A stretch of DNA of 42,067 nucleotides from Myxococcales bacterium (GTDB lineage: Bacteria; Myxococcota_A; Polyangia; Haliangiales; Haliangiaceae), in contig JAEUJY010000022.1 in the NCBI GenBank assembly GCA_016794525.1, positions 1 to 42,067 of the forward strand, read 5' to 3'. A program made the position numbers and the translations under genes. Shown here piece after piece: positions 27,691-30,543 of this stretch; the stretch's first letter is position 1, and every line of letters begins with the position of its first letter. Below the pieces are notes generated by a model, which did not search any database, was not told where the DNA came from, and saw only the letters and a program-made list of their open reading frames with translations.

Positions 27691-30543
27691 TCACCCGCGG
27701 TTGGTCACGACCGCGTCGCTCGACCACGCCAGCTGCACGCGCTGCTGGCGCGGACCGTCGCCCGGCCGCCGGCTGACGACGACGCTGGCGGCGCCGGCCA
27801 GCTCGCACGCCTTGCCCAGCTCGGCCTCGACCAGGTACCACGCCAGCGGCGACGTCGCCTCGCCGTCGACGATCACCTCGGCGCCGGCCGCCGAGCGCGG
27901 CCCGAGCGTGCACCGGCACCAGCCGTGGTAGCGGTTCCACATCGACGGCAACACCGCGAGCATCGCCGACACGCCGAGCGTCGCCGGATCGGCGCCGAAG
28001 AACCGGGCGAACGTCGCCGACACGGTGCTGCGGCCGATCGCCCGCATCAGGTGCTCGCCGCCGTCGGGCGGGCGGGCCTTGCGGGTGTGGGGCTCGGCGC
28101 GCAGCACCAGCTCGATCAGCAGGTCGAGCGGCAGCCAGCCGACCACCGGCGTCGACGGGCTGAGCGCCGACGCCAGCATCGGGTCGCCGTCGGCCACCGC
28201 GCGCACCGCGCCGTCGCCCGCGAGGTGGGCGATGACCCGTCCGCCGACCCGGAAGTGGGCGGCGCGGACCATGCCGAACTGCATCGACTGCACGCTGGCC
28301 GGGCGCGCCGACGCGCCGAGCCGCTCGGTCTGGCGCAGCACCGCCTCGGGCTTGACCGTCGTCGACGCCTCGGGCGAGCCGGGCACGACCCGCGGCGCGC
28401 GCTCGAGCGCGCGGGCCAGCGCGATCGCGAACGTCGAGGCCGACGCGTAGCGCTTCTCGGCGGCGGGATCGAGCGCCTTGGCGAGGATCTCGTCGACCGC
28501 GACCGGCAGCTCGGGGCGCAGCCCGCGCGCCGGCGGCAGCGGCTCGTGCAGCTGCCGGGCGATCACCTGCATCAGCTGGCCCGAGCCGAACGGCGGGCGC
28601 CCGGTGAGCGCGCAGTAGACCGTCGCGGCCAGGCCGTAGACGTCGGTCTCGGGCGACTCGCGGCCGCCCTCGAGGAACGACTCGGGCGCGGCGTAGCCCG
28701 GGGTGCCGGCGCCGTCGACGTCGTCGCCGCGGCGCTTGGCCACGCCGACGTCCACCAGCACCGCGCGATCGCGCTCGCGATCGAGCAGCACGTTGGCCGG
28801 CTTGACGTCGCGGTGGATCAGGCCGATCGCGTGCATCGCGTCGAGCGCGTCGCCGATCTCCAGCACGACCTGGGCGATCGCCTCGAGCGGCAGCCACTGG
28901 CCGGCGGCGTGCTGCGCGTCGAGCACCTCGGCCAGCGACTGGCCCTCGACCAGCTCCATCACGAAGTAGACGTCGCCCTCGTGCTCGCCCAGCGAGTAGA
29001 CCTGCACCAGGTTGGCGTGGTGCAGCGAGGCCAGCATCGCGGCCTCGGCGCGGAACCGCGTCACCAGCAGCGCGTCGCTGGCCAGGTCGGAGCGCAGCAC
29101 CTTGATCGCGACCTGCCGGCCCAGGCCGAGATCCTCGCCGCGGTAGACCACGCCCATCGCGCCGCGCGACAGCTCGTGGAGGATCCGGTACGTGCCGCCC
29201 AGCGTCGTGCCGGTGGTGACGCCGGCGGCGACGTCGACCTCGGCGCCGGCCTCGGTCTCGCCGCGCGACGCGGCGCGGGCGACGACGATCGCGCCGGCCT
29301 GGGCGCCGCGCACCGCCGCGCGCAGCCGCGCGAAGCCGGCCTCGCCCGAGCGCTCGCCAGCGCCGAGCAAGGTCACCGCCCCGCGCAGCGCCAGGGGCAC
29401 GTCGCCGTCGCTGGCCGGCACCGCCGCCCCGATCCGCGCCAGCAGCTTGACCGCGGTGATCTCGGCGCGGGCCGCGTCGAGGTCGGGCATCAGCACGACC
29501 AGGTCGTCGCCGGCGAACCGCGCCACCCGATCGCGCGGCCGCGCCGCCGCCTTGAGCCGGGCCGCCAGCGTCACCAGCACCTCGTCGCCGACGCGGTGGC
29601 CGCGCTCGAGGTTGAGCTTGCGCATCCCGACCACGTCGATCAGCGCCAGCGCCACCGGCTCGCTCGACGCGCGCGCCGCCGACAGCGCCGCGGCCACCTC
29701 CTGCTCGAGGGCGTGGCGGGTCAGCGCGCCGGTCAGCGGGTCCTGGCCGGCGCTGGCCAGCAGCCGCTCGTGATCGGTGACCAGCCGGCGGTGGCCGGCG
29801 CGGAACGCCAGCTCGCGCGGCAGCCGGGTCGCGAGCGCCCGCAGATCGGCGACCTCGGCACCGCCGAACCGCCGCGCGCGATCGGCGACGACCGCGATCA
29901 AGCCGCCGACCTCCTGCGGGCCGGTGGCCAGCGGCGCGGCGATCACGCTGAGCGCGTGGGTGCCGGTGGTGACCGTCGTCAACCCGGTGGCCGCCGCGAC
30001 CCGGGCCGCGATGCCGAGCGCGGCCTGGTCGGCGTCGGCGCTGGCCCGGGTGCTCCACGGGATCAGGCCGTCGCCCTCGCGCCACCAGAAGACGCAGTCG
30101 TCGGCGGCGAAGGCCCGCGCGATCAGCGCGAGGCCGTCGGCGGTGGGCTCGCCCTTGCCGTCGAGCACCGACGCCGCGATCAGGCTGCGCGCCCGGGCCA
30201 GCTCGACCTCGGGCAGCGCGACCGGCGGCGGCGCGCAGATCAAGGTCAGCCCCTCGGGCGACAGCGGCGCCATCGCCACGCCGACCGCGCCGCACTTGAC
30301 CGCCGCCGAGGCCACCTTGCCGGCGCTGTCGCCCTCGCCGAGCACCCAGCGGGCGCCGGTCGGCGTCGCGGCCGCCAGCGCCTCGGCGGCCGAGCTCCCG
30401 ACCAGCACCGGCGCGGAGCCGAAGCCGGCCAGGTGCGCCACCGCGCCGACCACGGCGGGCGCGGCGCCGATCCGCGTCGCGAGGCTGGCCACGTCCCCCA
30501 GCCGCCCCGCGGGGTCGAAGATCACCAGGCGCGGCGCGGCCAC
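27691..30543 (-). CDS. Multidomain Ser/Thr protein kinase: REC-like N-terminus, GAF-like domain, degenerate GGDEF (AGDD), Hanks-type kinase domain, and a C-terminal ~230-aa domain of unknown function
   Basis: GGDEF-like region LIDVVGMRKLNLERGHRVGDEVL...RFAGDDLVVLMPD, with GG(D/E)EF replaced by AGDD. Kinase motifs GAMGVVYRG, VAIKVL, HRDVKPANVLL, DVGVAK (DFG variant), GTPGYAAPE. GTG start at 30541-30543. Stop 6 bp from the convergent HK stop. Confidence 0.85.
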   Translation of the reverse strand: MAAPRLVIFDPAGRLGDVASLATRIGAAPAVVGAVAHLAGFGSAPVLVGSSAAEALAAATPTGARWVLGEGDSAGKVASAAVKCGAVGVAMAPLSPEGLTLICAPPPVALPEVELARARSLIAASVLDGKGEPTADGLALIARAFAADDCVFWWREGDGLIPWSTRASADADQAALGIAARVAAATGLTTVTTGTHALSVIAAPLATGPQEVGGLIAVVADRARRFGGAEVADLRALATRLPRELAFRAGHRRLVTDHERLLASAGQDPLTGALTRHALEQEVAAALSAARASSEPVALALIDVVGMRKLNLERGHRVGDEVLVTLAARLKAAARPRDRVARFAGDDLVVLMPDLDAARAEITAVKLLARIGAAVPASDGDVPLALRGAVTLLGAGERSGEAGFARLRAAVRGAQAGAIVVARAASRGETEAGAEVDVAAGVTTGTTLGGTYRILHELSRGAMGVVYRGEDLGLGRQVAIKVLRSDLASDALLVTRFRAEAAMLASLHHANLVQVYSLGEHEGDVYFVMELVEGQSLAEVLDAQHAAGQWLPLEAIAQVVLEIGDALDAMHAIGLIHRDVKPANVLLDRERDRAVLVDVGVAKRRGDDVDGAGTPGYAAPESFLEGGRESPETDVYGLAATVYCALTGRPPFGSGQLMQVIARQLHEPLPPARGLRPELPVAVDEILAKALDPAAEKRYASASTFAIALARALERAPRVVPGSPEASTTVKPEAVLRQTERLGASARPASVQSMQFGMVRAAHFRVGGRVIAHLAGDGAVRAVADGDPMLASALSPSTPVVGWLPLDLLIELVLRAEPHTRKARPPDGGEHLMRAIGRSTVSATFARFFGADPATLGVSAMLAVLPSMWNRYHGWCRCTLGPRSAAGAEVIVDGEATSPLAWYLVEAELGKACELAGAASVVVSRRPGDGPRQQRVQLAWSSDAVVTNRG

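Follow-up and report, generated by a model that had tools for sequence, protein, structure and literature searches.

A myxobacterial Hanks-type kinase family that joins pseudo-receiver, GAF, degenerate GGDEF, and H-NOX-like modules and lies in a gap-pgk-tpiA gene order

Here, we describe the protein encoded by a 950-amino-acid (aa) open reading frame (ORF) at 27691..30543 on the minus strand of a 42,067-nucleotide (nt) stretch of DNA from a Myxococcales bacterium (contig JAEUJY010000022.1 of assembly GCA_016794525.1). We refer to the whole stretch as the window and to the 950-aa protein as the query. We propose that the query would be a cytoplasmic, competent Hanks-type Ser/Thr kinase gated allosterically by its GAF domain, by cyclic di-GMP (c-di-GMP) at the inhibitory site (I-site) of a degenerate GGDEF domain, and by an H-NOX-like module, with its output on triose-phosphate metabolism. 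We give this reading a probability of about 0.5. The ORF has a GTG start that matches the family consensus MAAKRLAVFDPSGR, and its G+C content at third codon positions (GC3) is 0.98 in a window of about 75% G+C. Its parts are as follows.

27691..30543 (-), whole ORF, 950 aa: pseudo-REC / GAF / helix / degenerate GGDEF / Hanks kinase / H-NOX-like
30229..30543 (-), aa 1-105: pseudo-receiver, (beta-alpha)5 CheY-like fold without the phospho-acceptor Asp and the conserved Lys
29869..30222 (-), aa 108-225: GAF domain, the most conserved sensor module
29761..29862 (-), aa 228-261: long signaling helix from GAF to GGDEF (DSSP helix 228-267 in the structure model)
29269..29760 (-), aa 262-425: GGDEF domain, full-length but degenerate (Pfam and 4zmm alignment)
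29530..29541 (-), aa 335-338: I-site RxxD, here RPRD, equivalent to PleD R359/D362
29500..29514 (-), aa 344-348: degenerate active site (A-site) AGDDL, equivalent to PleD G368-F372
28396..29190 (-), aa 452-716: Hanks-type Ser/Thr kinase domain (Pfam Pkinase and PknE/PknA/PknB matches)
29101-29112: VAIK (translated window coordinates)
28807-28815: HRD (translated window coordinates)
28744..28752 (-), aa 598-600: DVG replacing DFG, a hallmark of the family
28681-28689: APE (translated window coordinates)
27718..28275 (-), aa 757-942: C-terminal H-NOX/DUF2378-like sensor domain
27919-27939 (-), aa 869-875: invariant W-x-R-Y-H-x-W in the C-terminal domain

An initial annotation, made from the sequence without database searches, had proposed five modules (receiver-like, GAF, degenerate GGDEF, kinase, and a C-terminal domain), and all five were borne out. 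When Pfam domains were assigned, the Pkinase and GGDEF matches both exceeded their curated cut-offs, and translating the window coordinates confirmed that VAIK, HRD, and APE are intact, that DFG is replaced by DVG, and that RFAGDDL is present with RPRD upstream of it. NCBIfam agreed: models of PknB-type kinases and of many diguanylate cyclases were matched in part. Sequence profiles searched against PDB gave no matches for the C-terminal region and only chance immunoglobulin A matches for the N-terminal region; both regions were resolved by fold comparison instead. The possibility that the GGDEF and GAF regions are unrelated low-complexity linkers was ruled out, as both are confidently folded and conserved. 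A membrane receptor kinase was also ruled out, as the most hydrophobic 19-residue segment falls inside the receiver fold. The kinase protein is soluble and cytoplasmic.

The query belongs to a family of at least 120 full-length homologs (858-982 aa, 47-97% identity), all of which have Pkinase and GGDEF domains. Below, the close family is a 121-sequence alignment, and the wider family is a set of 53 cluster representatives of at least 850 aa with 29-42% identity. The wider family has the same architecture. The named homologs are labeled as Kofleriaceae, Myxococcales, or Deltaproteobacteria metagenome-assembled genomes (MAGs). From GTDB species-representative genomes we collected 104 loci and kept 80. 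A look-up of the exact query protein in a contig index gave no record. One family locus, L024, lies on a 3.5-kb contig of a MAG labeled Acidobacteriota, probably a binning error.

The kinase domain is the clearest part of the protein. Pfam Pkinase (PF00069) matched aa 452-698 (E 1.9e-38, 132.8 bits against a cut-off of 31.7), and the best solved kinase domains were those of PknE, PknA, and PknB (E 1e-43 to 1e-36). In the family alignment, K481, E500, HRD, Asn, D598, APE, and D634 are invariant (121/121). The sole change among the catalytic residues is the Phe of DFG, which is Val in all 121 members of the close family and in 48/53 of the wider family. Because DVG is found in every close member, we regard it as a family trait and not a lesion. 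A pseudokinase was ruled out because every catalytic residue is invariant; thus, the kinase is predicted to be catalytically competent. The activation loop of the query, DVGVAKRRGDDVDGAGTPGY, is short and acidic, with no Ser or Thr between DVG and GTPGY, and therefore loop phosphorylation cannot be a universal switch for this family. This separates it from its nearest solved relatives: mycobacterial PknE, PknA, and PknB share all of the catalytic residues, but they are membrane receptor kinases with DFG and phosphorylatable loop threonines, whereas the family kinase is soluble, with DVG and a short acidic loop.

We then compared the two nucleotide sites of the GGDEF domain. Pfam GGDEF (PF00990) matched aa 267-365 (E 4.2e-19, 69.3 bits against a cut-off of 23.8) and spanned only profile positions 3-104 of 161. 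The phmmer alignment to the diguanylate cyclase 4zmm, residues 62-213, runs through the C-terminal helix; since it reaches residue 213, the domain is complete and divergent in its last third. According to the phmmer ranges, a uniform shift of +24 converts query positions to PleD numbering. In the close family the I-site RPRD has its Arg in 119/121 and its Asp in 121/121, and K366, at the position of PleD R390, is basic in 114/121. The metal and guanine ligands D303, N311, and D320 (PleD D327, N335, and D344) are also conserved. At the A-site, about 105 of the 121 members (~87%) have GGDE[L/I], the canonical GG[DE]EF occurs once, and the fifth motif position is Phe in 2/121. Only three sequences, the query and the two nearest to it, have AGDDL; those that come next have GGDDL, GGDVL, or GDDDM. 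Elsewhere in the domain, the second Asp of DxDxFK is gone (D-V-V-G), GRN is absent, and the 'ADxALYxAK' helix has lost its Lys, with Gln at that position in the query and Pro in the family consensus. We take PleD K442 and R446 to be the phosphate-binding Lys and Arg of this C-terminal 'ADxALYxAKxxGRN' helix. The wider family has RxxD in 45/53, GG[DE]E in 16/53, and GG[DE]EF in 0/53. Across these lineages the I-site is retained and the A-site drifts freely.

The query has the combination that marks PopA/PelD/SgmT-type receptors, an intact RxxD together with a degenerate A-site. The earlier reading of the AGDD signature, which called for a check of both sites, held for the query itself: RPRD is intact and AGDD is there. 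However, AGDD is limited to the small subclade of the query and is not found family-wide. In the query subclade, the A-site decays while the GGDEF domain remains better conserved than the linker. With the I-site kept and the A-site and phosphate-binding Lys degenerate, the domain is probably not a cyclase and is a candidate c-di-GMP/GTP sensor. The N-terminal unit as a whole (pseudo-receiver, GAF, helix, and degenerate GGDEF) is a dimeric diguanylate cyclase layout in which the catalytic site has decayed and the putative allosteric c-di-GMP site, RxxD with K366, is preserved. Its likeness to the receiver-GGDEF cyclases of the PleD/WspR type lies in the N-terminal receiver fold, the helical linker, and the GGDEF domain with an RxxD I-site, and PleD D327, N335, D344, R359, D362, and R390 map one-to-one onto family residues. 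In contrast to PleD and WspR, the receiver of the family is not phosphorylatable, the A-site and phosphate-binding Lys are degenerate, and a kinase and an H-NOX-like domain are appended.

These same residues could be explained if the protein were a bifunctional enzyme, with an active, product-inhibited cyclase in most members and cyclase activity lost only in the query subclade. Active cyclases classically use RxxD for feedback control, GGDE[L/I] is the common A-site of the family, and the residues equivalent to PleD D327, N335, and D344 are kept. Cyclases with a non-canonical AGDEF or SGDEF motif can be active (PMC3974145), and GGDEF is matched strongly and over its full length in the remote relative P0362 (E 6e-32). 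What makes us consider this explanation unlikely is that the fifth position is almost never Phe (2/121, with one canonical GGDEF) and that GG[DE]EF does not occur among the 53 wider relatives. In addition, the second Asp of DxDxFK is lost and the phosphate-binding Lys is replaced family-wide, and in the wider family it is RxxD that persists while the A-site varies freely. A second explanation keeps the domain inactive and gives it no c-di-GMP role: it would be only a dimerization or structural scaffold or a GTP (guanosine triphosphate) sensor, and regulation would be by the GAF and H-NOX-like domains alone. The GAF domain and connecting helix are far more conserved than the GGDEF domain, the guanine-binding residues that are kept would also suit GTP sensing, and 8/53 wider relatives lack RxxD. 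This explanation leaves R335, D338, and K366 hard to account for, since they are near-invariant in 121 sequences that are about 46% identical between clades over this domain, and we regard it as improbable.

Upstream of the GGDEF domain, the N-terminal region has a CheY-like (beta-alpha)5 fold, and no Pfam REC (PF00072) match was found. Positions 49-51 read A/P-P-A and position 92 is T/A throughout the family alignment. With no phospho-acceptor Asp and no conserved Lys throughout, this is a pseudo-receiver. The remote relatives P0276, P0295, and P0298 have a genuine receiver with both the Asp and the Lys (Response_reg score of 42.9 bits in P0276). Because these three keep a phosphorylatable receiver, the ancestor was probably a receiver-GAF-GGDEF-kinase-H-NOX-like protein with a real receiver. 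The GAF assignment was confirmed on the basis of fold or profile match.

To compare constraint between modules, we ranked them by identity in the query subclade (n=20) and the majority clade (n=99), and the order was the same in both: kinase (0.83-0.87), helix (0.81), GAF (0.70-0.77), GGDEF (0.63-0.67), H-NOX-like (0.59-0.65), pseudo-receiver (0.50-0.54), and second linker (0.30-0.38). This ordering indicates that all of the modules are constrained and that GAF is the best-conserved sensor. The ratio of nonsynonymous to synonymous substitution rates (dN/dS) agrees in its relative ranking, which alone was used because a GC3 of ~98% compresses dS and makes absolute dN/dS unreliable.

The C-terminal domain is folded in the structure model, with a predicted local distance difference test (pLDDT) score of 91, and fold comparison matched it to the H-NOX fold over its full length. 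The query domain had no match to the V4R, DUF2378, or TIGR02265 models. Among 30 family members, there were sub-threshold matches to V4R (16/30), DUF2378 of Pfam (9/30), and TIGR02265 of NCBIfam (11/30). With the C-terminal profile, a word-index homolog search yielded little besides fragments of the kinase family itself, and an exhaustive profile search reached stand-alone relatives of ~183 aa. One of these, P0367, scored 31.6 bits against the DUF2378 cut-off of 22.2 and also had a sub-threshold HNOB match. From the fold matches, the DUF2378 match of P0367, and the weak matches of the family, we infer that this domain is a sensor module of the H-NOX/DUF2378/V4R superfamily. The initial annotation had found no motif here and suggested a myxobacterial domain; this was right, as the domain is probably related to DUF2378/TIGR02265, a Myxococcus paralogous family, and has the H-NOX fold. 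The DUF2378 (PF09536)/TIGR02265 and V4R (PF02830; DmpR/PoxR sensors, MsvR) families, which gave the sub-threshold matches in 9-16/30 members, differ in being mostly stand-alone proteins or transcription factor fusions and not fused to kinases, and the query matches none of their models.

Most members have a zinc-type site in this domain, of the kind seen in Shewanella and Vibrio H-NOX. The pattern C-x22-H-x2-C-x7-C is found in 89/121 members, or 99/121 with one residue of slack, and in most of the stand-alone relatives. Neither the query nor any of the 19 relatives closest to it (at least 61% identity) has this Cys3His site. Since most stand-alone relatives have it, we consider the site to be ancestral and lost in the query subclade. 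In Shewanella oneidensis, H-NOX (So H-NOX) binds zinc through Cys139, His161, Cys164, and Cys172 (PMC7108781). The heme-free Vibrio cholerae H-NOX senses oxidants through its zinc site and then inhibits its partner kinase (PMC7108781). These proteins with a Cys3-His/Gln zinc site (SO2144 and V. cholerae H-NOX) are stand-alone heme proteins that act in trans on the histidine kinase HnoK (PMC7108781), whereas the family domain forms one protein with a Ser/Thr kinase and has neither YxSxR nor an HNOB Pfam match, and the query also lacks the zinc-type site.

Could the C-terminal domain be a true heme-binding H-NOX that senses nitric oxide or oxygen? The fold is that of a full-length H-NOX, and the zinc-type site is common to group 2/3 H-NOX. 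The invariant H873 falls about 4 residues from the position expected of the proximal His. This placement comes from a weak hhalign local alignment to a Tt H-NOX sequence, which covers only alphaD-alphaE and has a probability of 5%. YxSxR, the heme-propionate motif of H-NOX, is not conserved: the query reads DGEATS, and Tyr is found in ~40% of the family with no Ser/Arg pattern. No HNOB (PF07700) Pfam match was found in the query or the close family, and the spacing from His to the zinc Cys is 8 residues shorter than in So H-NOX. Furthermore, the proximal heme-ligating His is absolutely conserved in H-NOX (PMC7108781), and H873 is Ser or Tyr in some stand-alone relatives. Judged by these residues, heme binding by the domain is unlikely, and we think it very unlikely that it is a gas sensor of this kind.

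The genes around the kinase gave the strongest context signal, which the initial annotation missed: the family is embedded in a putative gap-pgk-tpiA operon. The relevant genes of the window are listed here.

30633..31832 (-): pgk, directly upstream of the kinase gene with an 89-nt gap
31920..32924 (-): gap (glyceraldehyde-3-phosphate dehydrogenase), upstream of pgk
33116..33298 (-): conserved 59-aa ORF just upstream of gap, and upstream of gap in most family loci (tblastn)
22330..23088 (-): tpiA, which follows the kinase gene directly in relatives and is here displaced by 4.6 kb (tblastn, 93% identity to L004 TpiA)
23188..27684 (+): HK2, a multi-PAS hybrid histidine kinase gene convergent with the kinase gene, with 6 bp between the stops (Pfam; start uncertain)

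Three divergent homologs (80%, 52%, and 48% identity) have gap-pgk-[kinase]-tpiA on one strand, and in three loci the kinase gene ends 12 bp before tpiA. Of the 80 species loci, 73 were testable for tpiA; the gene follows the kinase gene on its strand within 1 kb in 59 of them, in many cases at 6-100 bp. Gap and pgk precede the kinase gene on the same strand in 41/52. The order gap-pgk-kinase-tpiA is kept at 37-42% identity (P0301, P0243, and P0362), and in L090 pgk and the kinase gene share 4 bp, the stop of the one overlapping the start of the other. The gap, pgk, and kinase genes may be co-transcribed. A consensus scan of 27300-33400 found no promoter or terminator, a result that is uninformative at 75% G+C.

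In the window, this order is interrupted by HK2. The closest genomes (L005, L085, and L086) do not have the insertion (~23143-27685), and the 3' part of HK2 is 76% identical in DNA to that of its neighbor HK1 (19150..22323); thus, HK2 is a lineage-specific duplicated insertion. HK1 and HK2 each end 6 bp from a convergent stop, HK1 facing tpiA and HK2 facing the kinase gene. The 1717-aa HK2 ORF listed from 22531 (+) is over-extended, as its first ~190 codons are antisense to tpiA; a plausible GTG start is at 23188. The small ORF upstream of gap encodes 54-60 aa ('...AVRILAKSLYRDLTAQGFDEKQIVSLATELI...') in ~50 related loci, for example at 7287..7469 in L085, and usually lies within a few hundred bp of gap. 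It has 52-83% identity outside the closest genomes and no Pfam family, and its product could be a regulator or a kinase substrate.

Whether the operon position has functional meaning was the next consideration. The gene may simply ride a strongly expressed housekeeping operon, with substrates unrelated to glycolysis. The lineage of the window tolerates separation of the kinase gene from tpiA, 11/52 loci lack gap and pgk directly upstream, and the remote relative P0276 lies elsewhere; its locus, L087, is near a peroxiredoxin gene and two more Ser/Thr kinase genes. Myxobacterial genomes are also rich in Ser/Thr kinases (PMC2887360). On the other side, the place between pgk and tpiA is retained over a range of 97% to 37% protein identity and in no fewer than 80 species-level genomes, often with 6-100 bp between genes or with stop and start codons that overlap; a neutral insertion inside a core operon would not usually persist in this way. 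We consider an incidental position possible but doubtful. The operon position makes Gap, Pgk, TpiA, or the 59-aa protein candidate targets or partners of the kinase.

We propose the following mechanism for an allosterically gated kinase. The kinase would be switched allosterically and not by phosphorylation of its activation loop. The unit of pseudo-receiver, GAF, helix, and degenerate GGDEF probably controls the geometry of the kinase dimer, and GAF would be the primary ligand sensor, as in SgmT. The GGDEF domain would have given up c-di-GMP synthesis and would serve as a receptor: c-di-GMP at its I-site would sequester the dimer or change its orientation, as happens in SgmT, PopA, and PleD. 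The H-NOX-like domain would provide a second input, through zinc-thiolate redox in most members and, in the query, through a ligand at the invariant W-x-R-Y-H-x-W pocket. The output would be phosphorylation of triose-phosphate-linked proteins, with Gap, Pgk, TpiA, and the 59-aa protein as candidates.

Several observations weigh against this mechanism. Most close members keep GGDE[L/I], D303, N311, and D320, so the GGDEF domain may bind nucleotide or have residual cyclase activity in the close family, and an AGDEF enzyme is active as a cyclase (PMC3974145). In the query subclade, the rate of evolution of the GGDEF, pseudo-receiver, and H-NOX-like modules is several times that of the kinase and GAF, which suggests that these inputs may be weakened there; the query also lacks the zinc-type site. 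Gene adjacency does not identify substrates. P0276, the most remote relative examined, is outside the glycolytic context, and the inserted HK2 separates the kinase gene from tpiA in the window, which means that tight tpiA coupling is not obligatory. Finally, all of the relatives come from uncultured MAGs or metagenomes. The fullest version of the proposal is that this would be the first Hanks-type kinase under the direct control of c-di-GMP, acting on a retired cyclase domain, and of an H-NOX-like redox or ligand sensor that works without heme, hard-wired in gap-pgk-tpiA to phosphorylate triose-phosphate enzymes. We do not expect all of this to hold.

The initial annotation had taken HD-GYP and PilZ genes in the window as a hint of cross-talk between c-di-GMP and Ser/Thr phosphorylation, and only the PilZ part of that context has some standing. 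The HD_5 (HD-GYP-type) gene is at 2290..3483 (-), ~24 kb from the kinase gene, and was not seen within the 6- to 10-kb flanks of the five relatives inspected. A linkage between HD-GYP and the kinase was ruled out on these grounds.

40687..41100 (-): PilZ-domain gene, ~10 kb from the kinase gene (Pfam PilZ, E 6.9e-14)

In three divergent relatives (L018, L088, and L089), a PilZ ortholog directly precedes the small ORF and gap, and in the window two MopE-like genes separate PilZ from the gap operon. A PilZ-gap-pgk-kinase-tpiA linkage may be ancestral and is visible in few loci. The two MopE-motif genes are very large (33.3-40.6 kb, minus strand, including 36459..40565; Cu-binding_MopE, E 1.6e-37), and their equivalents are found upstream of gap in L004, L085, and L086 and not in L088 or L089. 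Other genes of the window include a 923-aa frame at 8739..11510 (-), a bacterial gene like that of Major Vault Protein (shoulder domain, E 4.6e-20; vault repeat, E 2.5e-11). A small ORF at 11747..12355 (-) matches the C-terminal domain of the type VI secretion system immunity protein Tdi1 (E 1.8e-8). At 3..2273 (+), a frame that runs off the window start has 80.7% G+C and a strong AT skew of 0.30; its product, which has no Pfam match, has a Pro-rich N terminus and then an Ala/Glu/Arg-rich predicted coiled coil of ~600 aa.

Multi-domain bacterial Ser/Thr kinases, degenerate GGDEF receptors, and H-NOX sensors are each already known. Our literature search found no description of a REC-GAF-GGDEF-kinase-H-NOX architecture or of a signaling kinase inside gap-pgk-tpiA. 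The only fusion of a Ser/Thr kinase and GGDEF in a 2005 survey is a Clostridium thermocellum protein with a different order, kinase-TPR-GGDEF (PMC1262709). The closest parallel in design is SgmT of Myxococcus xanthus, in which a GAF domain, the primary sensor, is followed by a histidine kinase, a receiver, and a degenerate GGDEF (PMC3509222). Like the family, SgmT is a myxobacterial protein kinase that joins a GAF sensor with a non-catalytic GGDEF domain, whose I-site is a c-di-GMP receptor in SgmT. However, SgmT is a histidine kinase with a C-terminal GGDEF, whereas the family is Hanks-type, places GGDEF before the kinase, has an extra H-NOX-like domain, and lies in a glycolytic operon, and its I-site is putative. 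Pkn4 of M. xanthus phosphorylates 6-phosphofructokinase (Nariya and Inouye 2002, 2005, as cited in PMC1262709). The likeness is that of a myxobacterial Hanks kinase tied genetically and functionally to a glycolytic enzyme that it phosphorylates. In our family, the neighbors are Gap, Pgk, and TpiA, which are candidate substrates only. To our knowledge, Pkn4 does not have REC, GAF, GGDEF, or H-NOX modules.

The family offers natural experiments, as it has subclades with and without the zinc-type site, intact and decayed A-sites, and real and dead receivers. If the proposed wiring is true, it would extend c-di-GMP effectors to Hanks kinases and H-NOX-type sensing to Ser/Thr phosphorylation. It would also single out a candidate through which lower glycolysis could be controlled post-translationally in Kofleriaceae/Haliangiales, a group often met in soil and activated-sludge metagenomes. 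In that case, an abundant uncultured myxobacterial family would have a direct line from second-messenger or redox state to glycolytic/gluconeogenic flux.

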